64,000 nucleotides of DNA from Acidobacteriota bacterium. Lineage in GTDB: Bacteria > Acidobacteriota > Vicinamibacteria > Vicinamibacterales > UBA2999. Of this stretch, positions 14,883-46,961 are shown piece by piece. Below the pieces are notes generated by a model. The model did no database searches and was not told the origin of the DNA. It saw only the letters and a list, made by a program, of their open reading frames with translations. Position 1 is the first letter of the stretch; each line of letters begins with the position of its first letter. Position numbers and translations under genes: made by a program. Location: contig JABFSA010000040.1 of assembly GCA_013140775.1 (NCBI GenBank), forward strand, positions 5,182 through 69,181. The letters run 5' to 3'.

Positions 14883-14892
14883 GAGCTGGCAT

Positions 14893-16778: not shown

Positions 16779-16786
16779 GCGGCACT

Positions 16787-18259: not shown

Positions 18260-18263
18260 AACG

Positions 18264-21143: not shown

Positions 21144-21826
21144 CAGTTCTTTTCTGGGACATCGACGGCACGCTTCTCACTACCGCCAAAGCCGGCGTCT
21201 TCGCCTGGGAGGACGCCGTACGCGAGGTGGTCGGTGGCGAGTTCGAGCTGGCGAAGATGAGAATCGCTGGAATGACGGACTATCAGATTGCCGTCAAGAC
21301 CTTCGAGATGCTCGGTGTCGAGGTGAACGACGACACGCTTCGACGCTTCGTCAATCGATACGGCGAGCTGCTGCCCACGAGCCTTCCCCGCAAGCAGGGG
21401 CGCGTGATGCCGAACGTCCGCGAAATCCTCGAGCACCTTCAGCAGCGGCCTGATGTGCAGTCGTTCCTGCTCACGGGCAACACTCGCGCGGGAGCCACGG
21501 CCAAGCTGACGCACTACAACCTGATGCACTTCTTTCCTGACGGCGCCTTCGCAGAAGACACCGGCGATCGCGCATCCATTGCGAGGCGAGCCGTCGAGCT
21601 GGCCAGGCAATACGGCCCCGTGGCCGATGATCGTCTGTTCGTCATCGGTGACACCCCGCACGACGTGGCGTGCGCGACTGCCATCAATGCCAGAACGATT
21701 GCCGTTGCGACCGGAGGCTACGCGATCGAGGAACTGAAGGCCTGTGATCCCTGGCGAGTGTTCAGCGAACTTCCAGAGCCTGACGCGTTCATGAATCTCA
21801 TCGACGCCGGAGGCCGCGTGGCGTGA
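21140..21826 (+). CDS. HAD-superfamily phosphatase (capped, PGP/beta-PGM-like)
   Basis: Start at ATG 21140 (ATGA overlap). FWDIDGTLL (DxDGT), LLTGNT and VIGDTPHDV motifs. Confidence 0.85.
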   Translation: MTVLFWDIDGTLLTTAKAGVFAWEDAVREVVGGEFELAKMRIAGMTDYQIAVKTFEMLGVEVNDDTLRRFVNRYGELLPTSLPRKQGRVMPNVREILEHLQQRPDVQSFLLTGNTRAGATAKLTHYNLMHFFPDGAFAEDTGDRASIARRAVELARQYGPVADDRLFVIGDTPHDVACATAINARTIAVATGGYAIEELKACDPWRVFSELPEPDAFMNLIDAGGRVA

Positions 21827-23547: not shown

Positions 23548-23553
23548 ACACTG

Positions 23554-25362
23554 TTGCAGCCTTTCTTCGTGGCGGTGCTTGCCGTCGCTGCGCTCTGCAG
23601 CCTTGCAGGCGGGGCCGTTGTCCGTCGCGTGGCCCGAGCCAGTGGCGCTGTCGTGCCGCCTCGGCCCGATCGCTGGCATACGACACCGACGCCGACGATG
23701 GGTGGGATCGCGATCGCCGCGGGTACCTTGATCGCGTTTGCCATGATCGCGCTTCGCCCGGATCTCGTGGGACCGCCGGCGGACTGGTTGCCTGTTCCGC
23801 TCGCGGCCTTCGCGATGTTCGTGGTGGGCGTGCTCGACGACCGGCTGCAACTGTCGCCGCTTGCGAAGCTGGTGTCCTCGCTGGCTATTGGCGCATTCCT
23901 CGTGTTCGCACTGGCAGGCGGAGGACCCGAGGACGCGTTGCCTTCGGCGTATACGCTCGTCGCCACCGTGTGGTTTGCCGGTATTTGCCACGCGATGAAC
24001 CTGCTCGACAACATGGACGGGCTGGCCGCGGGCATCGGACTGATTGCCGCCGTATTTCTGACGTGGCTGCTCCCGGGCGTGCTTGGGCCAACGCTGGTTG
24101 TGCTGCTTCTCGCACTCGCCGGAGCGCTGGCAGGATTCCTCTACTGGAACCGCAATCGCGCCCGGCTGTTCATGGGGGATTGCGGCAGCTTGTTCATCGG
24201 GGCACTGCTGGGCGCCGCCTCGCTTGTGCCGGTCTACAACGCGCCGATGGCTTTTATCAGCCCCGCGGTCATCGTGGTGTTGATTCTGATCGTCCCTATC
24301 TTTGACACCGCGTTCGTGCTGGTGCTGCGGCGGCTCGCTGGTCTCAAGGCGACCAAGGGAGGCACCGATCACGTGTCCCACCGGCTCGTCTCACTCGGTT
24401 TCTCCGAACGCAGCGCGGTCAGGACGCTGTACATGCTCGGCGCCGTGGGAGGCGGAACAGCGTGGTTTCTGTTGAGTGGGCAGGGCGCGGAGCCCATGCT
24501 GCCCCTCGTGGCGGCCTTCGGTGTGCTCGTCGTCTTGATGGGCATCTACCTCGCGCGCGTTCCCGCGTACGACGCCGAAGATTTTGTCGCGCTCCAGAAG
24601 TCGTCGTTTGCGCCGTTTCTCAAGGATCTGGCGTTCAAGTGGCATGCCGCGGAAGTCATGCTGGATTTCGTCCTGATTGCCGTGTGCTACTACCTGGCGT
24701 ACCGGCTCAGATTCGAGGGTGAAGGTTTCGACAACTTCCTGCCGTACTTCACGGCGTCTCTTCCAGTCGTGCTGGGCTGCAAACTCGCGGGTATCTACGT
24801 TTCGGGTCTGTATCAGCGATCGTGGGATACGTTTGGCCTGCGCGATCTCACAGCCGTCGTGCGGGGTGTCGGCATGGGCTCGCTGTTCTCGATTCTGACG
24901 ATCGCGTATCTGTACCGCTTCGAGGGCTTCTCCCGAGTCGTATTCCTGCTCGACGCTTTGTTGCTCGGAATGGCTATCGTTGCGACCAGGGCGTCATTCC
25001 GCGCAATGAGCCTCGTGGCGGCGGTACGGAACAAGCGCAGCCGCCGAGTGCTCGTGTATGGTGCCGGCCAGTTCGGCCAGACGCTCGTGCGTGAGATGCG
25101 GGCCAACTCGCGGTGGAACATGAATCCGATTGCCTTCATCGACGACGACCCCGGCAAGGTACGTCGCTGGATCTCGGGTGTTCAGGTTCGCGGTTCGCTC
25201 GACGATCTCGAGGCGACCATGCGCCGCTATTCCGTCGATGAGGTCGTCTTGAGCAGCCCGGCAATCAACGGAGCCGTCGAGCACAGGATTCGGGAGATCT
25301 GTTCGCGGATGGAGCGGCCGGTTCGGCGTCTGCGCATGGAAATCCGTGACCTCGACGCGTGA
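23554..25362 (+). CDS. WecA/MraY-family polyprenyl-phosphate HexNAc-1-phosphate transferase fused to a CapD/WbaP-N-terminal-like TM plus Rossmann module
   Basis: HTTPTPTMGGIAI, VLDDRLQLSPLAKL, NLLDNMDGLAAG and MGDCGSLFIG. The C-terminal part has extra TM segments, then VLVYGAGQFGQTLV...IAFIDDDPGKV...VQVRG. Confidence 0.8.
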   Translation: MQPFFVAVLAVAALCSLAGGAVVRRVARASGAVVPPRPDRWHTTPTPTMGGIAIAAGTLIAFAMIALRPDLVGPPADWLPVPLAAFAMFVVGVLDDRLQLSPLAKLVSSLAIGAFLVFALAGGGPEDALPSAYTLVATVWFAGICHAMNLLDNMDGLAAGIGLIAAVFLTWLLPGVLGPTLVVLLLALAGALAGFLYWNRNRARLFMGDCGSLFIGALLGAASLVPVYNAPMAFISPAVIVVLILIVPIFDTAFVLVLRRLAGLKATKGGTDHVSHRLVSLGFSERSAVRTLYMLGAVGGGTAWFLLSGQGAEPMLPLVAAFGVLVVLMGIYLARVPAYDAEDFVALQKSSFAPFLKDLAFKWHAAEVMLDFVLIAVCYYLAYRLRFEGEGFDNFLPYFTASLPVVLGCKLAGIYVSGLYQRSWDTFGLRDLTAVVRGVGMGSLFSILTIAYLYRFEGFSRVVFLLDALLLGMAIVATRASFRAMSLVAAVRNKRSRRVLVYGAGQFGQTLVREMRANSRWNMNPIAFIDDDPGKVRRWISGVQVRGSLDDLEATMRRYSVDEVVLSSPAINGAVEHRIREICSRMERPVRRLRMEIRDLDA

Positions 25363-26477
25363 GCGGCATCCTGAGAGTTGGAATCGATGGCCGCGCGTTT
25401 GCGTCGCCGGCGGCCGGAGTCCGGAGGTACATCAAGGGGCTGACCAGGGCGCTCGTCGCCCTTGGGGAACCGCTCGAACTGGTGGCGCTCGGCGGCCTTG
25501 ACCCGACAGCCCTTCCACCTGGCATCGGCCATGTCGCTGAACCGCCCCATCCCCCGACCAATCTTGGCTGGACACTTGTCGGACTCCCGCGTGCTGCCAG
25601 GCGCGCTGGAGTAGACGTCGTCCATGCCCCGGCATATACGGCGCCGTTCTGGTCGCCGGCACCGGTCGTCCTGACTATTCACGACGTGAGCTACGAACGT
25701 CATCCAGAGTGGTATCCGTATCGCCGCGACTGGGCGCGGCGTGCGTTCTACCGGCGCAGCGCGCACGTCGCGTCGCAGATCCTCACGGTGTCCCGGTTCT
25801 CTGCAACTGAAATCACGGCGGCGTACGGCATTCCGGCGGATCGCATGACCGTCACTCCCCTTGGCGTTGATGGGGCATTCGTCGCCAAAGATCCTCGCTC
25901 GAGGGGACCGCTGCCGCCGGGCGTTCGTCAGCCCTACCTGCTGCACGTCGGCGATCTGCACGAACGACGGAACCTGGCGATGCTCATTCGAGCCGTTGTC
26001 GCGGCACGACGCCAGATGCCCTCCGCGAAGTCGTTGTCGCTCGTGCTCGTCGGCACGGATCTGAGTGTTGGGGATGCAGTATCGGAGATCGCGAGACAGG
26101 CCGGCACACCAGACGCGGTCGTCCGGCTTCGTTCCGTGAACGAGAGGCGGCTCAGAGGTCTCTATCAGGACGCCGTTGCTCTTGCGTATCCGTCGTTCTA
26201 TGAAGGCTTCGGCCTTCCTCTTGTGGAGGCGATGGCCTGTGGAACACCGGTGCTCGCCTCGAACGTCGCTTCAATGCCTGAAGTCCTTGGTGGCGCCGGA
26301 GTGCTGATCGATCCTGCTGACGAGGCGGCCTGGACTCGGGCGATTCTCGATCTGCTGAACGGGGGCGATCTGCGCGGGCGCCTCCGTGATGCCGGCCTTC
26401 GCCGCGCCGGCGAGTTCACGTGGGAGCGGACGGCCCGTCTGACGCTGGACGTGTATCGACGGTCCGTCGCGCGATGA
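25359..26477 (+). CDS. Glycosyltransferase family 4 (GT-B, retaining type)
   Basis: PSFYEGFGLPLVEAMACGTPVLASN. GTGA overlap upstream. Confidence 0.9.
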   Translation: MSGILRVGIDGRAFASPAAGVRRYIKGLTRALVALGEPLELVALGGLDPTALPPGIGHVAEPPHPPTNLGWTLVGLPRAARRAGVDVVHAPAYTAPFWSPAPVVLTIHDVSYERHPEWYPYRRDWARRAFYRRSAHVASQILTVSRFSATEITAAYGIPADRMTVTPLGVDGAFVAKDPRSRGPLPPGVRQPYLLHVGDLHERRNLAMLIRAVVAARRQMPSAKSLSLVLVGTDLSVGDAVSEIARQAGTPDAVVRLRSVNERRLRGLYQDAVALAYPSFYEGFGLPLVEAMACGTPVLASNVASMPEVLGGAGVLIDPADEAAWTRAILDLLNGGDLRGRLRDAGLRRAGEFTWERTARLTLDVYRRSVAR

Positions 26478-27511
26478 CTGCCGACGCTCTTCACGCTGAC
26501 TCGACACATCCGAATCCGGACATCTCGGTCGTGATCGTCAGCTGGAATGGCCGCCGGTTCCTCGAGCCGTGTCTTCGCGCGCTGGAGCGGCAGGAGGGCG
26601 TCCGGGCTGAGGTTGTTCTCGTGGACAACGGCTCGACCGACGGCACCGCGGCATTTGTCCGTTCAGTCTTTCCCGGCGTCCGCATCGTTCGTCTCGAAGA
26701 GAATCGTGGATTCGCTGGCGGCAACAACGCAGGCGCGCGTGAGGCCAGGGGCGAGTACCTGGCGTTTCTCAACAACGATACAGAGGCCGACCCGAACTGG
26801 CTTGCAGAACTCCGCGGCGGCATCGATCTGTCGTCCCGGTTCTCACTGGTCACGTCGCGCGTCGTCTACATCCACGACCCGGGTGTGATCGACAGCGCGG
26901 GCGACGGCCTGTTCAGGGCTGGTGCGGCGTTCAAGTGGCACCATGGTGAGCGTGTCGAAACGGCCGAACGTTCGGCGGAGGTATTCGGTGTCTGCGGCGC
27001 CGCCTGTCTGATGCCGAAAGCCATATTCGAAGAGCTGGACGGTTTCGATTCCGATTTCTTTGCCTCGCACGAGGACGTCGATCTGTCGTATCGTGCAAGG
27101 CTTCGTGGCTACAGGTGTCGATACGTGCCATCCGCTGTGGTGCGCCATCACGGCAGCGCCACACTTGGAACGATCAGCCCGTTCGCCGTTTTTCACGGAC
27201 AGCGAAATCTCGAGTGGGTCTATTTCAAGAACACGCCCACGTCGCTCCTCGTCCGTACGTTGCTCAGCCATGTCCTGTACGACGTCGCTGCCGCGATGCA
27301 TTTCGCCAGACTGGGGCGGCTGGGCTCCTTCGTGAAGGCAAAAGGGGCTGCGATAGCCGCGCTGCCGCGGGTCATGTCAAAGCGCGGACACATTCAGAAG
27401 ACGCGGACGACGGATGTTGCTGACATCGAGCCTCACCTCGAACGAAGCTGGCTGACGACGAAGATTCGCGAAAAGAAGTTCGATACCACTCTCGCGGACG
27501 GGCGTCGATGA
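26474..27511 (+). CDS. Glycosyltransferase family 2
   Basis: ISVVIVSWNG, VDNGSTDGT, NRGFAGGNN and EDVDLSYR. ATG 26474 has an ATGA overlap. Confidence 0.9.
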   Translation: MTADALHADSTHPNPDISVVIVSWNGRRFLEPCLRALERQEGVRAEVVLVDNGSTDGTAAFVRSVFPGVRIVRLEENRGFAGGNNAGAREARGEYLAFLNNDTEADPNWLAELRGGIDLSSRFSLVTSRVVYIHDPGVIDSAGDGLFRAGAAFKWHHGERVETAERSAEVFGVCGAACLMPKAIFEELDGFDSDFFASHEDVDLSYRARLRGYRCRYVPSAVVRHHGSATLGTISPFAVFHGQRNLEWVYFKNTPTSLLVRTLLSHVLYDVAAAMHFARLGRLGSFVKAKGAAIAALPRVMSKRGHIQKTRTTDVADIEPHLERSWLTTKIREKKFDTTLADGRR

Positions 27512-28374
27512 CCACGCCCGAAGTGAGCGTGATCATCGTGAACTACAACGCCGGCGATGAGCTCGAGCAGGCGCTGCAGTCCATCGCTGCGGATCTCGCG
27601 CAGCGGGAGTGGGAAGCCGTTGTCGTTGACAACGCCTCGTCGGATGACAGCTCCGCATCGGTTGCCCGGTTCGCGCCACGAGCACGGGTGTTGCGCAACG
27701 ACCAGAACGTGGGTTTTGCGCGAGGAGTCAATCAGGGGCTGACGGCCACGTCCGCGCCGGTCGTGCTGATCATCAATCCTGACTGCCGTCTTGTCGCCGG
27801 TGCATTCGACTGTCTGCTCGATGAGCTCGGGCGGTCGTCTTGCGCGATCGTGGGACCGCGGATTCTGAACCCGGACGGTTCAGCGCAGGGGAGTGCCAGG
27901 GGAGACCCCGACATGCTGACCGGCCTTTTTGGACGAACGAGCGTCCTCAGGCGACTCCTGCCGAATTCGGCTGCGTCGAAGCGAAATGTCGTGGTTGATG
28001 CCGATGGAGAAGAACGGACCAGCAGGACAGTGGACTGGCTTTCGGGGGCGTGCCTTCTGGCTCGTCGCGACGTGCTGTCAACCGTACGAGGATTCGACGA
28101 ACGCTACTTCCTGTACTGGGAGGACGCGGACCTCTGCCGGAGAATCCGGGCGCTGGGCTACCAGGTGCGATACGTACCTGCGGCGACGGCCGTGCATCGC
28201 GTCGGTCATTCCAGTCGCGATGGACGCGCGGCAGCCATTCGCGCATTCCACGAGAGCGCATATCTGTACTACGCCATCCACGTGGCGCCCCGCGCGTTCT
28301 TCAAGAGGGCTCTGGCCCGCGTGCTTCTGAAGGTGCGATGCCGTGTGCGAGTCGCACTGGCCGCCCGCCGCTGA
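27508..28374 (+). CDS. Glycosyltransferase family 2
   Basis: VSVIIVNYNA, VDNASSD, NVGFARGVNQG and EDADLCRR. ATGA overlap upstream. Confidence 0.9.
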   Translation: MTTPEVSVIIVNYNAGDELEQALQSIAADLAQREWEAVVVDNASSDDSSASVARFAPRARVLRNDQNVGFARGVNQGLTATSAPVVLIINPDCRLVAGAFDCLLDELGRSSCAIVGPRILNPDGSAQGSARGDPDMLTGLFGRTSVLRRLLPNSAASKRNVVVDADGEERTSRTVDWLSGACLLARRDVLSTVRGFDERYFLYWEDADLCRRIRALGYQVRYVPAATAVHRVGHSSRDGRAAAIRAFHESAYLYYAIHVAPRAFFKRALARVLLKVRCRVRVALAARR

Positions 28375-28376
28375 AC

Positions 28377-29486
28377 TCAATCCGACGGCACACCTTCCAC
28401 TAGCTTCGCCACGCGCGCTCCAATCGCCAGGCACGCCGTAAGACCAGGCGACTCGATCCCCACTGCCTGAACCAGGCGCGCGCACCGTCCATCCCTTTCA
28501 ATCCGGAAATCGGCAAATGAACTGCCAGGAGGGTGGAGCTTTGGTCGAATGCCGCTTGCACCGAGACGGAGGTCGTCGAGTGTCAGTTCCGGCAGCAATG
28601 GCCGCGCGTGCTCGAGAAAGTACTTGAGCGGCAGCCTGTCGGACTCGTAGTCGTCTTTCCCTGTTTGAAAGCGGACCGTTGGTCCGAACGTGACGTTGCC
28701 ATGAATCGTTCTGGTTGCGTGGACGCCGAGTGAATGGCCCGATCTGTCAGGCAGTGGATACACGAGGCCGTTGATGAGCGATCGTTTCGTCGGTACGAGC
28801 TCCGCGTATTCGCCGCGGCAGGGATAGATCGTGACCTCGTCACCGCCCAGCAGCGCGGAGACCTCGTCCGCATAGAGGCCAGCGGCATTGACCACCGAGC
28901 GCACGTGAATGCGCTCAGACGATGTCGCGAGCTCGAGGCCGTCCGTGACTTCGGTCATGCCGACGAGTGGAGTGCCGAGCAACACAATCACACCCATCTC
29001 GCTGCATTCCCGATACAATGCTGCGATGAGCCGCTCGGCATCAACTATCCCGGTGTGCGGTGAATAGAGCGCGGCTGCGGCGCTCACATGGGGTTCCCTG
29101 GCACGAATGAATCCACGGTCCACGATCTCGAGGCCTTCGACGCCGTTGTCCCTGCCACGTGACTGCAACGCTTCGAGGGCGGGGATCTCTGTGACATCCG
29201 CGGCGATCACGAGCTTTCCGCACCTGGCGTACGGAACACCGTGAGTGGAGCAGAACTCGTAGAGCATCCGGGCGCCATCGACGCAATCCTTCGCTTTGAC
29301 CGAGTTCGCCGGGTAATACAGACCGGCATGAATGACCTGGCTGTTGCGGGTGCTCGTCCCTCGTCCCGGGCGGGAGTCGCGCTCGAGGACACACACGCTG
29401 CGTCCTCCTCGGGCAATGGCCCGCGCGGTGGCCAGACCGACGACTCCGGCCCCGATGACGGCTGTATCGATGCGTGTCGTGTCCAT
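28377..29486 (-). CDS. FAD-dependent oxidoreductase (DAO family, L-2-hydroxyglutarate oxidase-like)
   Basis: Track ORF trimmed to MDTTRIDTAVIGAGVVGLATA (GxGxxG). SQVIHAGLYY. Converges on the GT2 stop with only 2 nt between them. Confidence 0.8.
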   Translation of the reverse strand: MDTTRIDTAVIGAGVVGLATARAIARGGRSVCVLERDSRPGRGTSTRNSQVIHAGLYYPANSVKAKDCVDGARMLYEFCSTHGVPYARCGKLVIAADVTEIPALEALQSRGRDNGVEGLEIVDRGFIRAREPHVSAAAALYSPHTGIVDAERLIAALYRECSEMGVIVLLGTPLVGMTEVTDGLELATSSERIHVRSVVNAAGLYADEVSALLGGDEVTIYPCRGEYAELVPTKRSLINGLVYPLPDRSGHSLGVHATRTIHGNVTFGPTVRFQTGKDDYESDRLPLKYFLEHARPLLPELTLDDLRLGASGIRPKLHPPGSSFADFRIERDGRCARLVQAVGIESPGLTACLAIGARVAKLVEGVPSD

Positions 29487-29550
29487 GACGTATTCGGAAA
29501 TGGTACGATAGGCGTTTGCAAGTGCCTGTGACGGGCCAGTATCGAGGGTG

Positions 29551-31423
<1,873 letters not shown>

Positions 31424-31431
31424 GAGACAGC

Positions 31432-32724
31432 GTGAGCCTCAAGGACAAGATACGGGATCGCAAGGCGCGGATTGGCGTCATCGGGCTGGGCTATGTCGGG
31501 TTGCCGCTGGCGGTCGAGTTTGCCATGAAGGGCTTCGATGTCACCGGCCTTGACGTCGATGAATCCAAGATCAAGGAAATCAACGCGGGCCGCAGCTACA
31601 TTCTGGACGTCAAGACCGAGCACGTGAAGGCGTGTGTCGATGCCGGCCGACTTCGTGCCTCGAGCGACATGTCGCACCTCAAAGACATGGACGCCATCGA
31701 CATCTGCGTGCCCACGCCGCTGCGCAAGACCAAGGACCCGGATCTTTCGTATGTGGTCCAGGCTGTCGATTCCGTGAAGGCGCACCTCAAGAAGGGGCAG
31801 CTCGTCATCCTCGAGTCCACGACCTATCCGGGCACGACCGATGAGGTCGTCCAGCCGGCGCTCGAGGAGAACGGCTTGAAGGCCGGCGTCGATTTTTATC
31901 TCGCGTTTTCACCTGAGCGCGTCGATCCGGGCAACGAGACCTACAGCACCCGCACGATTCCCAAGGTTGTGGGCGGCGTCAACCGTGAGAGTACGGAGCT
32001 GGCTTCGGATCTGTACGGCTCGATCGTGGACACGGTCGTTCCCGTCAGCTCGACGCAGGTGGCTGAGATGGTCAAGCTGCTCGAGAACACGTTCCGTGCC
32101 GTCAACATCGGTCTCGTGAACGAGATCGCCTTGATGGCGCACCGCATGAACATCGACGTGTGGGAAGTCATCGACGCGGCCGGCACGAAGCCGTTCGGCT
32201 TCATGCCGTTCTATCCGGGGCCCGGCCTGGGCGGGCACTGCATTCCGATCGACCCGTTCTACCTGTCCTGGAAGGCGCGTCAGAGCGGGTTCGAATGCCG
32301 GTTCATCGAGCTTGCGGGCCACGTCAACTCCTCAATGCCCGCGTTCGTCGTTGATCGCATCGGCGAGGCGCTGAATACGAGGAAGAAGGCGATCAACGGT
32401 TCGCGGATTCACATCCTTGGTGTCGCGTACAAGAAGGACGTGAGCGACATGCGAGAATCACCGGCGCTGGATGTGATCGAGCTGCTCCATCGGCGCGGCG
32501 CGTCCGTGACCTATTCGGATCCGTTTGTGCCCGTGCTGCAGCACGGTGACGTAGACATGAAAGCGACACCAGAGGGAGCGGACGGTTCCGGTATCGACTG
32601 TGCCGTTATCTGCACCAATCACCGGGTGTTCGACTACGCGGCGATCGTGAAACGCTATCCCCTGATTGTTGACACGCGAAATGCGCTGAAGGGCATTCAG
32701 GCGGACCACATCTTCCGGCTGTAG
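31432..32724 (+). CDS. Nucleotide-sugar 6-dehydrogenase (UDP-HexNAc dehydrogenase type, WecC/TviB/WbpA-like)
   Basis: GTG 31432 follows AGGAG (31422-31426). IGVIGLGYVGLPLAVEFA, and GGHCIPIDP with the catalytic Cys. Confidence 0.85.
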   Translation: MSLKDKIRDRKARIGVIGLGYVGLPLAVEFAMKGFDVTGLDVDESKIKEINAGRSYILDVKTEHVKACVDAGRLRASSDMSHLKDMDAIDICVPTPLRKTKDPDLSYVVQAVDSVKAHLKKGQLVILESTTYPGTTDEVVQPALEENGLKAGVDFYLAFSPERVDPGNETYSTRTIPKVVGGVNRESTELASDLYGSIVDTVVPVSSTQVAEMVKLLENTFRAVNIGLVNEIALMAHRMNIDVWEVIDAAGTKPFGFMPFYPGPGLGGHCIPIDPFYLSWKARQSGFECRFIELAGHVNSSMPAFVVDRIGEALNTRKKAINGSRIHILGVAYKKDVSDMRESPALDVIELLHRRGASVTYSDPFVPVLQHGDVDMKATPEGADGSGIDCAVICTNHRVFDYAAIVKRYPLIVDTRNALKGIQADHIFRL

Positions 32725-32731
32725 CCACTCC

Positions 32732-32756
32732 GGCGGATCCGCTTCGCGGATCCGCC
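32732..32756. terminator. Perfect 11-bp hairpin between convergent genes (putative bidirectional terminator, no U-tract)
   Basis: ggcggatccgc-ttc-gcggatccgcc. It overlaps the stop codon of the minus-strand gene. Confidence 0.45.
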
Positions 32757-34693
32757 TAACGCAGCGGCATCCACGCAATCTCTCTGGCCATGACCGAGAC
32801 CGGCCGGAGTGCGATGCGCTGACCCAGGCGCACTTCCTGCGTCCACATCTGATTCGCGCGGAAGTCCACACGTCTGAACGGCGTGCCCGTGGGCCGCGCG
32901 GGGACATCGATCGTGATCCAGGCGCCGGGCCTCACCTCCGTGCGATCGACAACCCGACCGGCGATTGAGGTCTCGATGATCATTGGCCGCATCATCGGAC
33001 GTGTCTGTGCGCGCAACTGCAGCCGCAGGAAGCCCGTGCCGTCGGGAATGTAGGTGACTGAATGACGTGTCATCCACCTGAACGTGTCACCATCATCGTT
33101 CTCGACTCCATGAAAACCGGAGTCCGGTGGGATTTCAACCGCGCGCTGTGAGGCCATGGCCGCGCGGCCAACGCCGGCTGCGATGAGGACACATCCCGCG
33201 ACGCAGACAACCCGGATGCCGAGAGGCGAGCGGTGGGCTATTCGCGCCGTGGCGGCGACGGCTCCCAACACGATCCAGAACGGCAGTGCCGCCTCCGGCA
33301 CAAGGAGAGGATGGCCGGTCAGGCAGGTCAGCAGATACCCCGTCGTTCCGGCGGTGAGCGCGAGGGTCGCGGCGTCATCGGGTGACTCGCGTAGCCTCAG
33401 CCATCCAACCCAGGACGCTGCCACGACAAGCCACAGAAACGGGAGTCCTCCGGCGACGCCCAGCTCGGAGAATTCCTGCGCGAAGTAGTTGTGCGCATTC
33501 TCGTTGCCGTAGAGCTCTCGCAGCGTTGGCGTCATGAACTCCGCGGAACGGTCGAAGTAGTGGCCGATGCCGACACCGAAGAGCGGGGACGTCGCGAACA
33601 TGCGGGCGCTCGTCTGCAGGAACTGCGAGCGAAGGCTGGCGGATTGCCGGATGTCTCCCTGTCCGAATGACGCGCTCTCCATGCTGACGGCGAGCGAGAG
33701 TCCGGCGGCCAGCACCGCGGCGCACAGAAGCACCGGAAGCCGCGCCGCCCAGCCGGCCCGAACGATGGCAATCAGGCTCACGGCTCCTGCGACGCCGAGA
33801 TACGCCGAACGCGACCCTGCCAGCCATAAGGCTGGAACCAGAAGGCACAGAGACGCCGCCCACCGTCCGCGCTCTGTGGGCCGGGAGACGAGGTACGCCG
33901 CTCCGATGGCGAACGCGATCACGTACAGCGAGCCTGCCGCGTTGACATCAGCCATCGGAAGGCTGAATCGCTCGCCATGCTGCGTGAACCGCTGGATGAA
34001 CCAGGCAGCGTATTGCTCGTTCGACCAGTGCCAGAGGATGACGAGCGGAGTCGTAGCGGCAAGGGTGGTGACCGCGATGCCGATCGTGGCAGCCATGGTC
34101 CGGAGGCTGCCGGTGTGCGAACGCGCGATGCCCATCGCGGCGACAAACAGTCCGAGGCCGGTGAGGCTCTGCAGTAACGTCCAGGTTTCCGCCTCTGGCG
34201 ATGAATAGATGAGGTGATCGCTGGGGATCGACTGAAAGAGAAACTGCGGCATCGCCATCCACGGGATCCCTGGTGCACCCGCAACAGTGAAGGCAAGCCA
34301 GGAACCGAGGAGTGCCGTGCCGAACAGCCACGCCGGGAGTGAAACGAGTCGCGGCCACGGGCTCGTCGCGAGTGGTCGCCACAGCGAGAGAAGCCAGGCC
34401 GCCAGAAACGCCCACGCGAAAAGCTCAGACGCGCGGATGGGAGGACCGGCGAACAGAGCGCCCGTTGGAACGATGACCGCTGTCAGGGCGAGCCCCCACA
34501 GCGGGCGCCACAGCGTGATCGATGCCACCACGACCGCCACACCCGTGCACAGCAGTGGCAGTTCAGGCGCCGCCATGGCGATCCCAACAGACCACGCGAG
34601 CCAGAGTCCGATGAGGATTCGGAAGACCAGGGAGATCCCTGTGACCACAGGCAACGGAACTGTCTCGCGTGGGCGCGAGCCCGGCTCTGTCAC
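32756..34693 (-). CDS. O-antigen ligase/polymerase (Wzy_C)-like polytopic membrane protein with a C-terminal beta-rich domain
   Basis: Many TM segments. LWLAGSRSAYLGVAGAVSLIAI is the typical O-antigen ligase loop. Start set at GTG 34693 (GTGA overlap with the upstream stop); the track start is 34726. Confidence 0.75.
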   Translation of the reverse strand: MTEPGSRPRETVPLPVVTGISLVFRILIGLWLAWSVGIAMAAPELPLLCTGVAVVVASITLWRPLWGLALTAVIVPTGALFAGPPIRASELFAWAFLAAWLLSLWRPLATSPWPRLVSLPAWLFGTALLGSWLAFTVAGAPGIPWMAMPQFLFQSIPSDHLIYSSPEAETWTLLQSLTGLGLFVAAMGIARSHTGSLRTMAATIGIAVTTLAATTPLVILWHWSNEQYAAWFIQRFTQHGERFSLPMADVNAAGSLYVIAFAIGAAYLVSRPTERGRWAASLCLLVPALWLAGSRSAYLGVAGAVSLIAIVRAGWAARLPVLLCAAVLAAGLSLAVSMESASFGQGDIRQSASLRSQFLQTSARMFATSPLFGVGIGHYFDRSAEFMTPTLRELYGNENAHNYFAQEFSELGVAGGLPFLWLVVAASWVGWLRLRESPDDAATLALTAGTTGYLLTCLTGHPLLVPEAALPFWIVLGAVAATARIAHRSPLGIRVVCVAGCVLIAAGVGRAAMASQRAVEIPPDSGFHGVENDDGDTFRWMTRHSVTYIPDGTGFLRLQLRAQTRPMMRPMIIETSIAGRVVDRTEVRPGAWITIDVPARPTGTPFRRVDFRANQMWTQEVRLGQRIALRPVSVMAREIAWMPLR

Positions 34694-35883
34694 GGCCTGC
34701 GGCCGATCGCGGCGTAGTCGAGCCACGTGAACAAGAGGCGGTTGAGACGCTCGACGTTGGCGTTCAGCGTGTCAACCGCATTGCCCAACGACGCGTGTGG
34801 AGCAATCGGCTGGAGCTTGTCGTGTTCGGGATAGGGCGCGCTGTATCTGATGTCCACGTGCTGAAACCCGCTCGCGATCAACAGGTACTTCAGCGTATCC
34901 GGATGCAGGGGACGGACGTGGGTGATATCGCGGATATAGCTCTCGAAGAAGGCGAACCAGCATGCCGGGTTGATCGTCTCGAGCACGATCGGAGAGCCCG
35001 GTCGCAACTTGTCGAAGGCCTCTCCGAGTAGCGCTGTCAGGTACCCCGGCTCGAGGTGCTCGACGACCTGCGCGGCAAAGAGTCCCCCGAGTGAGCCGTC
35101 CGGCTGCGCGCGCAAGTAAGAGAGCGCGTCCGCATTGCTCGCGTCGAGTCCTTGTTGACGGCACACATCAACCATGGCGCCGTTGAGGTCGATGCCGCGC
35201 GCTGTTACGCCTTCGTCTCGCAGCAGCGACAGAAACTCACCGCGGCCGCAACCAATGTCGAGCACATCGCGAGCGCCGGTGAAAAACGGAAGGTACCCTG
35301 ATACCCGCCGGTGAATGTCTTCCTGCGACCCGCGAAACTGGTCCTCAAACCCGACGTACTGATGGCTGTCGAGCGACTCGCGTGAGACCGGCAGCCCTTC
35401 GCTTGCAGCCGGTGTGTCAGTCGTGCGAACAACGCCGCCCTCCGCAAGCTTCGCGACCTCTCGCTTCAGATGCTGCACACCCTGGTGGAGGCCGCTCATC
35501 GAGGCTTGCATCTCCTCATGGGCAGCGGTCAACGCGGCGAGTGCACCAGCGTTCCGCTGGTCGCGCGCCATCAGCGACTGTTCGTAGCGCCGGAGCTCGT
35601 CGAGCGCGCCTTCGACTCGGGTCTCCGTCCAGTCCATGGCTCGAACACTGGCTTCGTGCGTTTCCACGCCTCGGCGATTCAAGTGGTCCACGACGGCGGC
35701 GTTGAACTCCCGCTGCCGGAACAGAAGCCGGGAGATCACGTAGTCCATGTGGCGGACGAGACGCCGTCGCCAGTTGCTCTCTGGCGAAAAGGCGGTCAGG
35801 TTGAAGGTGGCGTTGAGGCGTTCGATCTGCTGGCGATCGGGAGGCGGGATCGGCGCGGGCCTGGGAGGTTGCGGCTCGCTCAT
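34690..35883 (-). CDS. Coiled-coil protein with a C-terminal class I SAM-dependent methyltransferase domain
   Basis: VLDIGCGRGEFLSLL and AAQVVEHLEP. The N-terminal 200 aa are charged and heptad-like (ALDELRRYEQSLMARDQ...LKREVAKLAE). Start at ATG 35883, just after the thiG stop. Confidence 0.75.
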   Translation of the reverse strand: MSEPQPPRPAPIPPPDRQQIERLNATFNLTAFSPESNWRRRLVRHMDYVISRLLFRQREFNAAVVDHLNRRGVETHEASVRAMDWTETRVEGALDELRRYEQSLMARDQRNAGALAALTAAHEEMQASMSGLHQGVQHLKREVAKLAEGGVVRTTDTPAASEGLPVSRESLDSHQYVGFEDQFRGSQEDIHRRVSGYLPFFTGARDVLDIGCGRGEFLSLLRDEGVTARGIDLNGAMVDVCRQQGLDASNADALSYLRAQPDGSLGGLFAAQVVEHLEPGYLTALLGEAFDKLRPGSPIVLETINPACWFAFFESYIRDITHVRPLHPDTLKYLLIASGFQHVDIRYSAPYPEHDKLQPIAPHASLGNAVDTLNANVERLNRLLFTWLDYAAIGRRP

Positions 35884-43201: not shown

Positions 43202-44518
43202 CTACCTCCGCCACGGCCCCTCTGCACCCAGAATTGACGCCGACACGAAGTCGGCCAGAAGTCTGTTGCCTCTCAGCGTGTAGTGGCAGCAGTCGTCCAG
43301 GTACACGGGTGACGGTTCCTCGTCGAAGATCCCGACACCGTTGAAGAAGGGTTCTTTCCCGACAAGCGCGCGCGACGCGGCGTTCAGTGCCGGATAGCCT
43401 TGCTCCGCGCCAGACTTGAAGGGTGAGCCAGGGTTGAGTGCCGTCCTGGCTTCCGCATCGCCGAACCGGCGGGTCGTGAAGTACTGGTTCGGCTGCAGGA
43501 AGTGAAAGTACGGAACCCCTCGATCCCGCAGCATCGCCTGCATCATCAACGACGACTGCGCCCATTGTGACGCGATGTCGGCGAAGAGCTTCGCACCGTC
43601 ACGCGTTGCTACCTTGGGCGTGACGCGCACCATTGATGTCTCGACCGCACCGTCCGGCAGGTTGCTCAGCCGCCCCAGCTCTGTGTAGTAGTGCGTCCGG
43701 GTCTGCTGGTAATAGCGGTCGAGGAACACGTAGACGGCTGCAGATCGGGTGCGCATCAAGCGGGTCACGAGGGCATCAAGCGTGTCCCTGTCGCGTTGGA
43801 TTGCGGCCATCGACCGCAGGCGTTCGGGTGTCAGGGTCGAGCGGTCGATGAGATTGACCAGTCCCTGCATGTGCATCGGACTGGGCATGGAGATGTCGGC
43901 GCCTCGCTGGTCGTTCATGGACGCGAGGGCCACTTCATTGAAGCCGTCGATGTTGATGACGAGATCGAACTCCTGGCCGATCGACAGGAAATATGTCAGC
44001 GCCAGCAACTGCTGTGGCTGCTTGTAGCCTTCGTGGCTGAAACAGAGCGGCACCAGTTCACGGCCCTTGAAGTACGCGTTTGCTTCGAGTGAGCGCAGAA
44101 GGTGCGGTACTCCGATATGGCAGAACCAGTTGCCGACAGAGCCGCCAAAAATCCCAATGAGGAACTGGTCGGCACGCGTCCTGGCGAACGGAAAGTCATA
44201 TGCCGAGAGAAACCCGAAGTTATTGGTGCGCGCACCCGTCGGGTTGGCCGGGTCCACCCCAGGCGGCTGGTTCTCACGAAGCTCTGCCGGGATCTGGAGT
44301 GGAAGACCAGGCATGTGTGTCGGGCCGAAGTAGGGATGGAGCGCCTCGCCTGTCAGTCGGCTCTCGGGTGTGTCCGTGATTCGCTCGTACGTCTTGTGAT
44401 GGACGTAGAACAGCGCTCCGGTATCTATGTAGTAGAGGAAGAGTCCGGCGATTTCGGCGAATAGAACGAGAAGGAAAAGATTGACCGAGGCGATCCACAG
44501 GTAGCGGCGTGCCATCAC
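43202..44518 (-). CDS. N-terminally membrane-anchored SGNH/GDSL-like protein (hypothetical)
   Basis: One N-terminal TM (YLWIASVNLFLLVLFAEIAGLFLYY). IGIFGGSVG resembles block I, INIDGFNEV resembles block III, and DDCCHYTLRGN resembles block V (DxxH). Confidence 0.6.
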   Translation of the reverse strand: MMARRYLWIASVNLFLLVLFAEIAGLFLYYIDTGALFYVHHKTYERITDTPESRLTGEALHPYFGPTHMPGLPLQIPAELRENQPPGVDPANPTGARTNNFGFLSAYDFPFARTRADQFLIGIFGGSVGNWFCHIGVPHLLRSLEANAYFKGRELVPLCFSHEGYKQPQQLLALTYFLSIGQEFDLVINIDGFNEVALASMNDQRGADISMPSPMHMQGLVNLIDRSTLTPERLRSMAAIQRDRDTLDALVTRLMRTRSAAVYVFLDRYYQQTRTHYYTELGRLSNLPDGAVETSMVRVTPKVATRDGAKLFADIASQWAQSSLMMQAMLRDRGVPYFHFLQPNQYFTTRRFGDAEARTALNPGSPFKSGAEQGYPALNAASRALVGKEPFFNGVGIFDEEPSPVYLDDCCHYTLRGNRLLADFVSASILGAEGPWRR

Positions 44519-44524
44519 TGATCC

Positions 44525-46363
44525 TCAGTCAGGTACGAACGCGGATTCGTAGCTGCGAGCGAGCGATGCATCTTGCTGGGTCTTGCGCAAAATGCATCGG
44601 CCTGCAACCAGCACATCGAGGTCGGTTCCCATGAAGCACCGGAATGCGTCCTCGGGCGTACAGACGATTGGCTCGCCTCGCACGTTGAAGCTTGTGTTCA
44701 CGAGAACCGGGCATCCGGTTCTCGCCTTGAACGCCTGGAGCAGCTGGTAGTAAAGGGGATGCGAGACGCTGTCCACGGTCTGGATTCGCGCGGAGTAGTC
44801 CACGTGGGTGACCGCTGGAATATCTGATCGCACGACGTTGAGTTTGTCGATCCCAAACAAGCGCTCCTCGCTGTCTGACATCTGGCGTCGGCGTTCGCGA
44901 CGGACGTCCGCGACGAGCAGCATATAGGGACTGTCCACATCCAGCTCGAACCAGTCAGCAGCATCCTCTCGGAGAACCGAAGGGGCGAACGGCCTGAAGC
45001 TCTCTCGGAACTTGACCTTCAAATTCAGCACCTTCTGCGTGGAAGGTGAAAGAGGATTTCCGAGGATCGATCGTGCTCCCAGCGCCCGTGGGCCGAATTC
45101 CATTCGCCCCTGAAACCATCCAACGGTTTCGTCGCGCGCCAGTGCGTCCGCCGTCGCCGCCGTCATTGCGTCGTCGTCCGCCACCGTCTCGAATGTGGCC
45201 CCCACCGCCCTGAGTCGTGCCTCGATCTCCGGATGCGAGAAGGAAGGTCCCAGGTAGCTGCCGGACATTCCGTCCGATCCTGCGTGCGCCACGCGGTCGT
45301 GCCCGGCGTGGAGGTGATACGCGGCCAGGGCAGCGCCGACCGCGCCACCCGCATCCCCAGCGGCTGGCTGAATCCACATCCGTTTGAATGCGCCGTCGCG
45401 AAGGACCTTGCCGTTCGAGACGCAGTTGAGCGCAACTCCCCCGGCCAGGCACAGGTTTGGAATGTTGAACTCGGCCGCAAGCGCCCGGGTCAGTGTGAGC
45501 ACCACCTCGTCGGTGACGGCCTGGATCGACGCGGCGACGTCCATGTGGAACTGTTCAAGAGGCTCGTCGGGACGTCGGACCGATCGTCCGAAGAGTCGGT
45601 CCAGGCGCTCGTTGGTCATTCGAAGACCGGTGCAGTAGTCGAAGTAGTCCAGATTCAGCCTGAAGGTGCCGTCGCTCTTGACGTCGATCACGTTGTCGAG
45701 AATCAATCGGGCAAAACGCGGCGTTCCGTACGGCGCCAGCCCCATGACTTTGTATTCGCCCGAGTTGACCCTGAACCCTGTGTAGTAGGTGAAGGCGGAA
45801 TAGAGAAGACCGAGGGAATGCGGAAACTGGATCTCACGGACTGGCTCGAGTGCTCGTCCGCGGCCGATGCTGACTGATGTAGTGGCCCACTCCCCGACGC
45901 CGTCCATCGTGAGGACCACCGCCTCAGAGAATGGGGACGGAAAAAAGGCGCTGGCCGCGTGGCTCTGGTGATGTTCGGCAAAGAGCAGGCGTTCGTCGAG
46001 ACGGCCCGTGAATCCCAACCGGGTCAACGAGTCACGCAGCCGTGCTTTCTGGAAGAGCTTGTCCTGAATCCAGACTGGCAATGCCGCGGAGAAGCTGGTG
46101 TACCCTCGCGGCGCGAATGCCAGGTAGGTGTCGATCAGGCGTTCGAACTTGAGAAACGGCTTCTCGTAGAACACCACCAGATCGATGTCGTCTGGCGACA
46201 ATCGGGTTTGAGCAAGGCACGCGCGCGTGGCATGACCTGGAAAACGGTCGTCGTGCTTCCGTCGAGTGAACCGCTCTTCCTGGGCGGCCGCGACGATTTG
46301 TCCGTCGATCACGACGGCCGCGGCGCTGTCGTGGTAGAACGCCGAGACCCCGAGGATGCGCAT
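44525..46363 (-). CDS. Carbamoyltransferase (NodU/CmcH family)
   Basis: MRILGVSAFYHDSAAAVV, EERFTRRKHD and NTSFNVRGEPIVCTPEDA. Confidence 0.9.
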   Translation of the reverse strand: MRILGVSAFYHDSAAAVVIDGQIVAAAQEERFTRRKHDDRFPGHATRACLAQTRLSPDDIDLVVFYEKPFLKFERLIDTYLAFAPRGYTSFSAALPVWIQDKLFQKARLRDSLTRLGFTGRLDERLLFAEHHQSHAASAFFPSPFSEAVVLTMDGVGEWATTSVSIGRGRALEPVREIQFPHSLGLLYSAFTYYTGFRVNSGEYKVMGLAPYGTPRFARLILDNVIDVKSDGTFRLNLDYFDYCTGLRMTNERLDRLFGRSVRRPDEPLEQFHMDVAASIQAVTDEVVLTLTRALAAEFNIPNLCLAGGVALNCVSNGKVLRDGAFKRMWIQPAAGDAGGAVGAALAAYHLHAGHDRVAHAGSDGMSGSYLGPSFSHPEIEARLRAVGATFETVADDDAMTAATADALARDETVGWFQGRMEFGPRALGARSILGNPLSPSTQKVLNLKVKFRESFRPFAPSVLREDAADWFELDVDSPYMLLVADVRRERRRQMSDSEERLFGIDKLNVVRSDIPAVTHVDYSARIQTVDSVSHPLYYQLLQAFKARTGCPVLVNTSFNVRGEPIVCTPEDAFRCFMGTDLDVLVAGRCILRKTQQDASLARSYESAFVPD

Positions 46364-46512
46364 CAAAAGATGGTGTAGATGAACGGCGCGACGACGCTGC
46401 CTTTCGCAAGGATGATGAGGCCGCCGAAGAGCAGGAGGACCAGCAGCAGCGGCAGCAGCCAGAACTTCTTTCTGGCCCTCATGTAAGCCCAGAACTCCAC
46501 GGCGAAACTCAT
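46363..46512 (-). CDS. Small membrane protein (DUF5989-like), absent from the ORF track
   Basis: My translation of the minus strand gives MSFAVEFWAYMRARKKFWLLPLLLVLLLFGGLIILAKGSVVAPFIYTIF. Its stop overlaps the carbamoyltransferase ATG. This is the typical partner of SxtJ and carbamoyltransferase genes. Confidence 0.7.
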   Translation of the reverse strand: MSFAVEFWAYMRARKKFWLLPLLLVLLLFGGLIILAKGSVVAPFIYTIF

Positions 46513-46523
46513 GCCTGTTTCCT

Positions 46524-46961
46524 CTAGAACTGCTGATCCATGCGCGACGCAGGCTGTTGCGTGCGATCGATCCAGTACGTCCTGGCCGACGGGTCTTTGG
46601 CGAGCCGCGGAGTCAGCCCTTTACCCAATGCCTGCCGGACCAGGCCGAATGGCGTGACAACCAGATAGAACAATGCGCCCATCACCAGCGGATTGATCAC
46701 TCGGTGCATGGCCAGGCCAAGGCGCAGCCAGAGCCGACTGAGCGGCGCCAGCGCCTGAGGTGCCGCCATCGTGACGAGGCCCACCAGCGTCGCAACGACG
46801 AGAGCCCAGGTCCTCACAGCGCCTCCGCGCCACAACGGGAGGGTTCCGACTACCAGAAAGACCACTGTGAACAGCGCGCCGAACGATCGATGTGAGGGCG
46901 CTGTGTTGACGTCCGTATGGAACGAATCCCTCTCGGTGCCTTCGCCGGCGAGCGCCTGCAT
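46524..46961 (-). CDS. SxtJ-family membrane protein
   Basis: 145 aa with two or three TM segments. SFGALFTVVFLVVG...LSRLWLRLGLAMHRVINPLVMGALFYLVVTPFG. Confidence 0.7.
   Translation of the reverse strand: MQALAGEGTERDSFHTDVNTAPSHRSFGALFTVVFLVVGTLPLWRGGAVRTWALVVATLVGLVTMAAPQALAPLSRLWLRLGLAMHRVINPLVMGALFYLVVTPFGLVRQALGKGLTPRLAKDPSARTYWIDRTQQPASRMDQQF

Follow-up and report, generated by a model that had tools for sequence, protein, structure and literature searches.

A SxtJ-DUF5989-carbamoyltransferase-SGNH gene cassette from a freshwater acidobacterium and its possible role in modifying a surface glycan

We analyzed a stretch of 64,000 nucleotides (the window) from contig JABFSA010000040.1 of the Acidobacteriota assembly GCA_013140775.1. 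The host is a freshwater acidobacterium with a genome of 63% GC. On the minus strand, four tightly packed genes encode a SxtJ-family protein, a DUF5989 mini-protein, an O-carbamoyltransferase (CT), and a membrane-anchored protein with a predicted SGNH fold, which we will call G4. Tentatively, and at slightly less than even chances, we propose that these genes form one operon-like cassette that acts on a cell-surface glycan. The closest known parallel, which the original prediction for this DNA missed, is the sxtI-sxtJ-sxtK-sxtL block of the saxitoxin cluster. The cassette resembles a block of the sxtIJKL type, but it has a glycan context and a divergent, unannotated SGNH partner. The four genes (with lengths in amino acids, aa) are:

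46524..46961, minus strand: SxtJ-family small membrane protein (145 aa; PF19588)
46363..46512, minus strand: DUF5989 mini-protein, the counterpart of SxtK (49 aa; PF19451)
44525..46366, minus strand: O-carbamoyltransferase (CT) of the NodU/CmcH/TobZ family (613 aa; Carbam_trans_N and Carbam_trans_C)
43202..44518, minus strand: G4, predicted type-II membrane-anchored extracytoplasmic SGNH-fold protein (438 aa; unnamed family; fold from AF2/Foldseek)

As originally predicted, these are four packed minus-strand genes, and the open reading frames (ORFs) were found at exactly these coordinates. Two of the junctions have gaps of 11 nt and 6 nt; at the third, the stop codon of DUF5989 overlaps the start of the CT (TTTTGATG), so we consider the genes to have an operon structure. 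A cytoplasmic CT of the TobZ/NovN type is translationally coupled to the SxtJ and DUF5989 membrane proteins. A sequence that resembles a ribosome-binding site (GAGGAAACAGGC) lies upstream of the ATG of DUF5989. Promoter and terminator scans at the cassette gave no signal that exceeded chance. The cassette's sequence is present solely in DNA runs (drinking-water and aquatic metagenomes) and in no transcript run.

The CT has both domains of its family (Carbam_trans_N, 345.6 bits; Carbam_trans_C, 242.4 bits). Its full length matches the PDB sequences of 7xb6, GdmN, NovN (9s2t), and TobZ, with E values of 1e-76 to 1e-92, and the GPRALG(A)RS motif that is named in the literature is visible in its translation. 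Hydropathy finds no transmembrane (TM) segment, which places the protein in the cytoplasm. With 151.8 bits against NF041651, it is far below the cut-off of 1000 for a NodU equivalog. The solved relatives convert carbamoyl phosphate and ATP to a carbamoyl-adenylate, from which the carbamoyl group passes directly to a hydroxyl; to our knowledge, all of them carbamoylate the final acceptor in this direct way. Because the CT shares both domains and full-length homology with TobZ, NovN, GdmN, and 7xb6, we expect it to use the carbamoyl-adenylate mechanism. These relatives differ from it in being soluble enzymes of antibiotic pathways that have no membrane partners. Another member of the CT's enzyme family, WapO (PA5005) of Pseudomonas, is the putative 7-O-carbamoyltransferase for a heptose of the lipopolysaccharide core. 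Its target would be an envelope glycan, so it is a precedent, if itself only a putative one, for O-carbamoylation of glycans by this family. We know of no SxtJ, DUF5989, or SGNH partner for WapO.

SxtJ scores 28.3 bits against PF19588 (cut-off 24.4). Hydropathy identifies three hydrophobic segments (residues 26-44, 48-66, and 88-106), and the C-terminal tail is basic. Few positions are at least 90% conserved across 78 homologs: two adjacent residues in an RSFG stretch, a proline, a tryptophan, another proline, and a tyrosine beside a well-conserved tryptophan. No histidine, aspartate, or glutamate reaches 90% conservation in this set. Given the three hydrophobic segments, the basic tail, and the lack of such residues, SxtJ fits the role of a scaffold better than that of a catalyst.

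The DUF5989 protein scores 83.7 bits against PF19451 and is 51-84% identical across Acidobacteriota and Cyanobacteria. Its invariant residues are W8, R14, K16, W18, L19, P21, G30, A42-P-F-I-Y46, and F49. It is predicted to be a single-pass protein with its basic N-terminus inside, a TM helix at residues 17-35, and its C-terminal tail outside. The highly conserved parts are the basic juxtamembrane RKKFWLLP and the outer tail APFIYT[IL]F (here APFIYTIF). DUF5989 is not mentioned in the literature that we searched.

G4 has no match in Pfam even at E ≤ 10 (including to PF00657, PF13472, PF16822, and PF19040), and no match in NCBIfam or among PDB sequences. More than 3,100 homologs are known, all annotated as "hypothetical," and at 50% identity the family falls into 3,452 clusters. 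An AlphaFold2 model, built on an alignment of 50 homologs that are 54-89% identical (the same alignment that we used for conservation), has a pLDDT of 82 and a pTM of 0.70. In the model, an N-terminal helix (residues 2-33) precedes an alpha/beta core of five parallel strands (118-125, 154-159, 186-191, 337-341, and 391-393), arranged as a three-layer alpha/beta/alpha, flavodoxin-like fold; a helical insertion of about 140 residues separates strand 3 from strand 4. Foldseek matches the model to SGNH/GDSL enzymes in PDB with a probability of 1.00 and target TM-scores of 0.53-0.69. The matches include CgnD, the GDSL esterases 7e16 and 8ik1, the acetyl-xylan esterases 7toh and 7ddy, and TesA.

At the level of sequence, the link between G4 and the SGNH superfamily comes from profile-profile comparison only. 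Using hhalign, we found that G4 is homologous to a family of canonical GDSL proteins, which we call c4, that follow DUF5989 in cyanobacteria (92% probability, E = 5e-7, 210 columns). The c4 proteins are TM-anchored and have a canonical GDSF motif (PF00657, 42.8 bits), along with a faint signal for AlgX (PF16822). The alignment pairs the membrane anchors, an N-x-G-F/R motif, and blocks I to III of the two families: GGS with GDS, EGYKQPQQ with DGYGTAQE, and DGFNE with GND. The relevant features of G4 are:

44438..44494, minus strand: membrane anchor, residues 9-27, N-terminus inside (hydropathy 2.21)
44132..44149, minus strand: candidate SGNH block I, F124-G-G-S127-V-G129 (G125, G126, and S127 invariant; at the end of strand 118-125)
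44012..44035, minus strand: candidate SGNH block II region, H162-E-G164-Y-K-Q-P-Q169 (all eight residues invariant)
43934..43948, minus strand: candidate SGNH block III, D191-G-F-N194-E (D191, G192, and N194 invariant; at the end of strand 186-191)
43283..43297, minus strand: candidate SGNH block V, D408-D409-C-C-H412 (D408, C410, C411, and H412 invariant)

The putative nucleophile is Ser127, and a glycine stands where the GDS motif has aspartate. The predicted oxyanion-hole residues, Gly164 and Asn194, are invariant and are aligned with the corresponding blocks of c4. Block V is followed by Y-T-x-x-G417-N, in which Tyr413, Thr414, and Gly417 are invariant. Position 409 is either aspartate or asparagine, and the spacing of this putative block (D409-x-x-H412...G417) fits the canonical DxxH(P)xxxG.

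The original prediction had given this protein a single N-terminal TM helix, an extracytoplasmic location, and SGNH blocks at FGGSVG, DGFNE, and DDCCH. Each of these proposals held up. The helix lies at residues 9-27 by hydropathy and at 2-33 in the model; the core residues of the blocks are invariant in the 50 homologs, which is far more than chance would give; the predicted structure matches SGNH/GDSL esterases, as described above; and topology prediction puts the SGNH domain outside. Across the family, the mean net charge is +2.2 on the N-terminal side of the anchor helix and -0.2 on the C-terminal side. Also, some relatives of about 660 aa (P0121, P0124, P0131, and P0147) have an N-terminal signal anchor, a CBM_4_9 domain, two more TM helices, and then the SGNH domain. 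Their arrangement (TM1-CBM-TM2-basic loop-TM3-SGNH) puts the carbohydrate-binding and SGNH domains on the same, outer side. The charge bias and this arrangement both imply that the SGNH domain of G4 faces outward. On the basis of the model, we predict that G4 is an outward-facing, type-II-anchored enzyme of the SGNH fold. Its sequence is compatible with either an esterase/carbamate hydrolase or an acyltransferase; by analogy, a hydrolase is most likely.

We surveyed the linkage of these genes from both directions. We will refer to SxtJ, DUF5989, and the CT together as the trio. Starting from G4, we sought the trio within 10 kb at 77 distinct genome loci. Starting from the trio, we used 80 DUF5989-anchored metagenome loci, taken from at least 541 confirmed DUF5989 matches. 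A simple gene caller mis-called some genes (such as the trio in locus L006), and the counts below are from matches of ORFs to hidden Markov models (HMMs).

At least one member of the trio is present at 34 of the 77 G4 loci. The other 43 comprise two short cyanobacterial contigs and 41 non-cyanobacterial loci. Where the genes are linked, there are four arrangements: co-directional (the window's SxtJ-DUF5989-CT-G4), divergent (L006 and L012-L014), convergent (L027, L043, L044, and L050), and the cyanobacterial CT-SxtJ-DUF5989-c4-G4. The gap between the CT and G4 is at most 574 bp in all 17 of the non-cyanobacterial loci with a detected CT, and the trio is present at every one of the 14 cyanobacterial loci with enough flanking sequence. 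We considered whether the trio-linked copies of G4 form one clade and rejected this idea: a neighbor-joining tree intersperses linked and unlinked copies. No recurrent partner was found for the unlinked copies, whose neighbors are methyltransferases, alpha/beta hydrolases, Lnt, and PMT_2.

As for the trio, all three genes are present in 72 of the 80 loci, and the remaining eight are short or cut contigs. The trio is recurrent, as originally predicted, and its function is still described as hypothetical in the literature up to 2026. Most often, the order is SxtJ-DUF5989-CT (68 loci versus 7). The carriers range from 23% to 71% GC, and the contexts are housekeeping-like. There is no strong match to G4 itself in these 80 loci. 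Lipase_GDSL_2 is the top Pfam family among 124 trio-flanking genes (10 members), and hhalign identified 15 c4-like SGNH proteins in 12 of the loci. Among the trio loci whose flank reaches 1.2 kb or more, 14 of 46 have an SGNH-like neighbor; among those that extend 2.5 kb or more in both directions, it is 1 of 10. The share of informative trio loci with such a neighbor is about 20-30%. We estimate that GDSL genes make up well under 1% of a typical genome, as compared to 8-12% of the trio's neighbors here. The association of SGNH genes with the trio is real and strongly enriched, yet it is not obligate. Most trios dispense with an SGNH gene, which is in line with G4 being accessory. The original expectation that the four genes would co-occur in other genomes is borne out in part: at 34 of 77 G4 loci, in four arrangements, and, from the side of the trio, at about 20-30% of informative loci.

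DUF5989 may have a closer relationship with SGNH enzymes. In loci L112 (3382-4553, minus strand) and L121 (942-2149), an extra copy of DUF5989 lies directly upstream of a TM-anchored SGNH gene with a GDS[FL] motif, and these units are separate from the SxtJ-DUF5989-CT of the respective locus. L076 (9756-11237) has an intact DUF5989 gene that is followed 48 nt later by a G4 gene, and neither CT nor SxtJ is present within 10 kb. In L010, the order is SxtJ-DUF5989-G4. Together with the gene order in cyanobacteria, these cases suggest that DUF5989 may be a physical partner of SGNH enzymes. Two side observations concern these loci. The G4 frame in L076 is broken near position 10,700, which could be a long-read error or gene decay, and sequence similar to an ECF sigma factor appears later in the ORF. 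In L121, a 380-aa protein (2139-3278) has motifs that by eye resemble those of G4 (LLGGS, VGFNEF, and DVEHFT..GN), although neither HMMs nor hhalign detected it. For a TM-anchored neighbor in L105 (444 aa), hhalign against the G4 profile gave no support.

The parallel with the saxitoxin cluster is as follows. The cluster contains a block with sxtI (a carbamoyltransferase), sxtJ (405 bp), sxtK (165 bp), and sxtL (about 1,280 bp), whose product is described as a "GDSL-lipase" of about 425-432 aa with a proposed function in "decarbamoylation." Moustafa et al. assigned sxtI, J, K, and L to a single class, that of genes shared with Oscillatoriales. All four are therefore of Oscillatoriales origin, and it is in this group that we found operons with both c4 and G4 (see below). 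In Lyngbya wollei, sxtI is truncated and sxtL is missing. According to reviews and a 2026 preprint, SxtJ and SxtK are uncharacterized, the role of SxtL is hypothetical, and SxtI, J, and K are "hypothesised to work in conjunction"; the proposed acceptor for SxtI, also hypothetical, is a soluble saxitoxin precursor. Like the cassette, this block combines an O-carbamoyltransferase, SxtJ, a mini-ORF with the size and position of DUF5989, and a GDSL/SGNH protein. The order differs (SxtJ-DUF5989-CT-SGNH in the cassette, CT-J-K-SGNH in sxt), and the context of the cassette is glycan rather than alkaloid: the Pfam annotations of the scanned window genes include none of the sxt core enzymes (sxtA, sxtG, etc.). 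Also, the SGNH protein of the cassette is of the G4 type, which is invisible to Pfam (GGS, DGFNE, and DDCCH), while SxtL is annotated as a GDSL lipase.

In cyanobacteria, the two types of SGNH gene occur together. All 14 of the loci with enough flank have the form CT-SxtJ-DUF5989, then zero to at least two c4 genes, and then one or two G4 genes. The carriers include Planktothrix, Arthrospira/Limnospira, Lyngbya, and Microcoleaceae, and DUF5989 is immediately 5' of the SGNH genes in all of these operons. For example, Lyngbya sp. PCC 8106 (L161, 6166-17881) has CT-(60 aa ORF)-SxtJ-DUF5989-c4-c4'-G4-G4', and a contig similar to Oscillatoria nigro-viridis has CT-SxtJ-DUF5989-c4-G4-G4'. (The Lyngbya locus has six SGNH/AlgX-like genes; of these, the two with AlgX domains are on the opposite strand, with a histidine kinase between. 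The 60-aa ORF is unannotated.) Since SxtL is described as a GDSL lipase, and c4 proteins are annotated as "GDSL" while G4 proteins are "hypothetical," SxtL is probably of the c4 type. No protein named SxtL is among the top 120 homologs of the Lyngbya G4 or of a c4 copy from Microcoleaceae, where Microcoleus orthologs dominate. These operons suggest that saxitoxin clusters acquired sxtIJKL as one complete tailoring block, and that its source was a glycan-modifying cassette in filamentous cyanobacteria.

What might the cassette modify? The window contains a cluster of about 35 kb for the biosynthesis of a surface glycan:

1..34726, no strand assigned: surface-glycan biosynthesis cluster with a nonulosonic-acid branch (from Pfam), a candidate source of the substrate
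14803-15969: NeuB, in the glycan cluster
18391-19191: CMP-type cytidylyltransferase, in the glycan cluster
32756-34726, minus strand: Wzy_C, in the glycan cluster

The cluster encodes Epimerase, DegT, NeuB, SDR, aldehyde dehydrogenase, CTP_transf_3 (the CMP-type cytidylyltransferase), and transketolase-like proteins. It also encodes an initiating Glycos_transf_4+CoA_binding_3 protein, two family 2 glycosyltransferases (GT2), DAO, GDP-mannose dehydratase (GMD), UDP-glucose dehydrogenase (UGD), and Wzy_C. Four large proteins of the cluster (1795-3504, 3492-5177, 9665-11641, and 21823-23547) have no match in Pfam. The cluster terminates in a methyltransferase-ThiG-ThiS block, as is also seen in L001/L006. 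In that orthologous locus (57% identical), the cassette directly abuts comparable glycan genes, in the order ThiS-ThiG-methyltransferase-[CT-DUF5989-SxtJ]-G4-epimerase-epimerase-DegT-DAO-GT2-GT2-GT4-Glycos_transf_4, where GT4 is a family 4 glycosyltransferase.

Similar genes are found near the trio elsewhere. Among the 124 trio-flanking genes, the families that come after GDSL are Epimerase (8), GDP_Man_Dehyd (6), Polysacc_synt_2 (4), GT4 (3), heparinase II/III (3), and CPSase (2); DegT, UDP-galactopyranose mutase, and UDP-glucose dehydrogenase are also frequent neighbors. And in a locus from Anaerolineales (L024:7593-17377) that is collinear with the NeuB block of the window (14803-23547), with proteins that are 42-69% identical, a G4 homolog (49% identity) sits between the SDR and aldehyde dehydrogenase genes, with overlapping gene boundaries and without the trio. 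The identity is unusually high for different phyla, which suggests horizontal transfer of the NeuB cluster. Given the trio's neighbors, the L001/L006 locus, the cluster in the window, the inserted G4 in L024, and the CBM_4_9 fusions, a surface glycan is the best-supported class of substrate. The original prediction had named a surface glycan or lipid. The gene context favors the glycan; lipid genes are not conserved beside the cassette.

The cassette has features in common with known systems for O-acylation of surface polymers. In PatA-PatB-Ape1 and AlgI-AlgJ-AlgF-AlgX, SGNH-like proteins are the writers (PatB and AlgJ/X) or the eraser (Ape1) of an O-linked group. Like these systems, the cassette combines cytoplasmic donor chemistry with a predicted extracytoplasmic SGNH-like enzyme and small accessory membrane proteins. 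The faint PF16822 signal in c4 and the AlgX-domain genes in the Lyngbya locus are further likenesses. But the cassette has no MBOAT or AT3 conduit: neither family turned up in the flanks in the window, nor in the 25 families that flank the trio or G4 most often, and an HGSNAT-like gene is present in L062 only. Also, the donor would be carbamoyl phosphate with ATP, via a soluble TobZ-like enzyme, and the pairing of the SGNH gene with the trio is not obligate, as judged by adjacency. Another comparison is with the AT3-SGNH proteins OafA/OafB (PF19040) and the acetyl-xylan esterases, in which an extracytoplasmic SGNH fold acts on glycans (Foldseek matches 7toh and 7ddy); one trio-adjacent c4-like protein weakly matches PF19040. 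G4 differs from these in its helical insertion of about 140 residues, GGS instead of GDS, a CC pair beside the putative catalytic histidine, a single-helix anchor, and no AT3 domain. By analogy to PatA/PatB and AlgI/J/X, the original prediction had made the SGNH protein the final transferase. This analogy is weakened because the pairing is not obligate (34 of 77 G4 loci; about 20-30% of trio loci) and SxtJ lacks conserved polar catalytic residues. Furthermore, the CT family, as far as we know, transfers directly, and the proposed role of SxtL as a decarbamoylase is the opposite one.

The gene identities, the fold, the topology, and the linkage come from the analysis itself; the acceptor, the direction of the G4 reaction, and any physical complex are inferred. 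In our proposal, for which we would again give somewhat less than even odds, the CT adds carbamoyl to a glycan intermediate while this is still at the inner face of the membrane, and the SGNH enzyme edits the polymer once it has been exported. Like its solved relatives, the CT would use carbamoyl phosphate and ATP to form a carbamoyl-adenylate. The carbamoyl group would then go straight to a hydroxyl on a sugar of the glycan intermediate, which would be membrane-bound through a polyprenyl link. SxtJ and DUF5989 would serve as a membrane dock or as an adaptor that presents the substrate. The modified unit would be flipped and then polymerized by the neighboring Wzy-type machinery. At the outer face, G4 would be an accessory, non-obligatory editor of the exported polymer. 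It would most likely be an ester/carbamate hydrolase, as proposed for SxtL and analogous to Ape1 with PatA/PatB; alternatively, it could be an O-acyl transferase for the exported polymer.

Several points weigh against this proposal. Among the four families, biochemistry exists for the CT family only. Serine hydrolases are usually slow on carbamates, so a role as a decarbamoylase is not self-evident. No carbamoylated glycan from Acidobacteriota or Oscillatoriales was found in the literature that we searched, nor did we find anything on carbamoylated exopolysaccharides with a carbamoyltransferase. Thirty of the G4 loci without the trio have at least 5 kb on both sides. The DUF5989-SGNH pairs in L112, L121, and L076 suggest a tighter coupling than an accessory esterase needs. 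Finally, about 8.5 kb of unrelated genes separates the cassette from Wzy_C in the window (ThiSG, a TPR gene, a DEAD helicase, IF-1, an Aas-like enzyme, and a split epimerase-like gene).

The DUF5989-SGNH pairs also keep alive a weaker rival, in which the carbamoyl group crosses the membrane: the CT would charge a carrier, SxtJ/DUF5989 would pass the carbamoyl along, and the SGNH enzyme would transfer it, via a carbamoyl-serine, to a surface glycan. In line with the original prediction, this would be a carbamoyl counterpart of the MBOAT/AT3-SGNH O-acyl systems (PatA/B, AlgI/J/X, DltB/D, and OafA/B). This would make sense of an outward SGNH domain combined with a cytoplasmic CT, of the extracytoplasmic tail APFIYT[IL]F being among the most conserved parts of DUF5989, of the faint AlgX signal in c4 proteins, and of DUF5989 units that stand with an SGNH gene on their own (L112 and L121), with G4 but no CT or SxtJ (L076), or before SGNH genes in cyanobacteria. 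But known acyl relays are obligate pairs, and here an SGNH neighbor is missing from about 70-80% of the informative trio loci, while 30 well-flanked G4 loci have no trio. SxtJ, with its three TM segments, has no conserved histidine, aspartate, or glutamate, and the families that flank these genes most often include no MBOAT or AT3 protein. The CT's solved relatives, as far as we know, transfer directly to the acceptor, the proposed acceptor of SxtI is a soluble toxin precursor, and we know of no carrier that takes carbamoyl across membranes. We consider such a relay to be unlikely. We are more doubtful still of a specific version in which SxtJ and DUF5989 are a minimal adaptor that couples the cytoplasmic CT to outward SGNH enzymes (G4 and c4), as a new trans-envelope relay for O-carbamoylation. 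If this were true, O-carbamoyl groups would be a widespread and overlooked decoration of surface glycans, and SxtL would be a transferase partner rather than a decarbamoylase.

It could also be that G4 is independent of the trio and is a periplasmic glycan esterase or O-acyltransferase that lies beside another glycan-tailoring module in variable loci. The 41 of 77 loci without any trio member (of which 30 have 5 kb or more of sequence in each direction), the interspersion of linked and unlinked copies in the tree, the Anaerolineales G4 within a NeuB cluster, and the lack of a strong G4-type match in the 80 DUF5989-anchored loci all fit this explanation. However, adjacency with short gaps is kept across four arrangements and two phyla, the homologous c4 family of SGNH proteins is the top neighbor of the trio elsewhere, and sxtI-J-K-L shows an equivalent pairing, so we think that independence is not likely. 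A further idea is that the CT with SxtJ/K carbamoylates a secreted or membrane-associated metabolite, which G4 decarbamoylates outside. The sole named context for SxtJ/K/L is a toxin cluster in which SxtL is a proposed decarbamoylase, and every solved relative of the CT has a natural product as its substrate. But neither the window nor the surveyed loci have a polyketide synthase, nonribosomal peptide synthetase, or other core gene close to the cassette; what recurs beside it are sugar-nucleotide and glycosyltransferase genes; the trio is found in genomes of 23-71% GC in housekeeping-like contexts; and the CBM_4_9 fusions point to carbohydrate. A small-molecule substrate seems quite improbable to us. 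Least probable is a membrane lipid or glycolipid, such as a polyol lipid or a lysophospholipid. The window does contain an Aas-like fusion (39680-42187, syntenic in L004) and a PlsC-like gene (51181-52341), SGNH enzymes include lysophospholipases (as in the TesA matches), and Lnt adjoins some unlinked copies of G4; yet it is glycan genes, and not lipid genes, that are conserved beside the cassette in other loci.

We also noticed several features of other genes in the window. Next to the cassette, a gene for an NAD-dependent epimerase-like protein (42144-43194, plus strand) is split over two frames: its Rossmann N-terminus (MRIFLTGATGYVGSAV...) is in the ORF at 42144-42467 and the remainder is in 42385-43194. 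This could be a frameshift in a pseudogene or an assembly error. The Aas-like fusion (39680-42187, minus strand) is one gene away from the cassette and has 835 aa, with AMP-binding, phosphopantetheine-binding, and PlsC-type acyltransferase domains; the gene at 51181-52341 is a second PlsC-like one. On the other side of the cassette, 47083-47499 (plus strand) encodes a DUF6210 protein (91 bits) that is divergent from SxtJ and is not conserved beside the cassette elsewhere. The M20 peptidase gene at 48879-50126 (plus strand; 117.9 bits in Pfam) has an antisense ORF of 417 aa (48918-50171, minus strand) with high GC at third positions. The simple caller preferred this antisense ORF, which illustrates that long ORFs in this genome of 63% GC are no proof of genes. 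There are two genes of the transketolase family, one within the glycan cluster (19173-21143) and one outside it (52732-54732), and two cytidylyltransferase-like genes (3-671 and 18391-19191) that belong to one BLAST cluster (c94).

Since the 2008 description of the saxitoxin cluster, SxtJ and SxtK have had no function assigned to them. Here we place them in a very widespread trio whose usual home is the biosynthesis of surface glycans, not of toxins, and whose commonest neighbor is a membrane-anchored SGNH enzyme. We also define G4 as a large unnamed family with the predicted SGNH fold (about 3,450 clusters at 50% identity). What is gained is a testable hypothesis, the O-carbamoylation and editing of envelope glycans, which would give three orphan families a concrete function.

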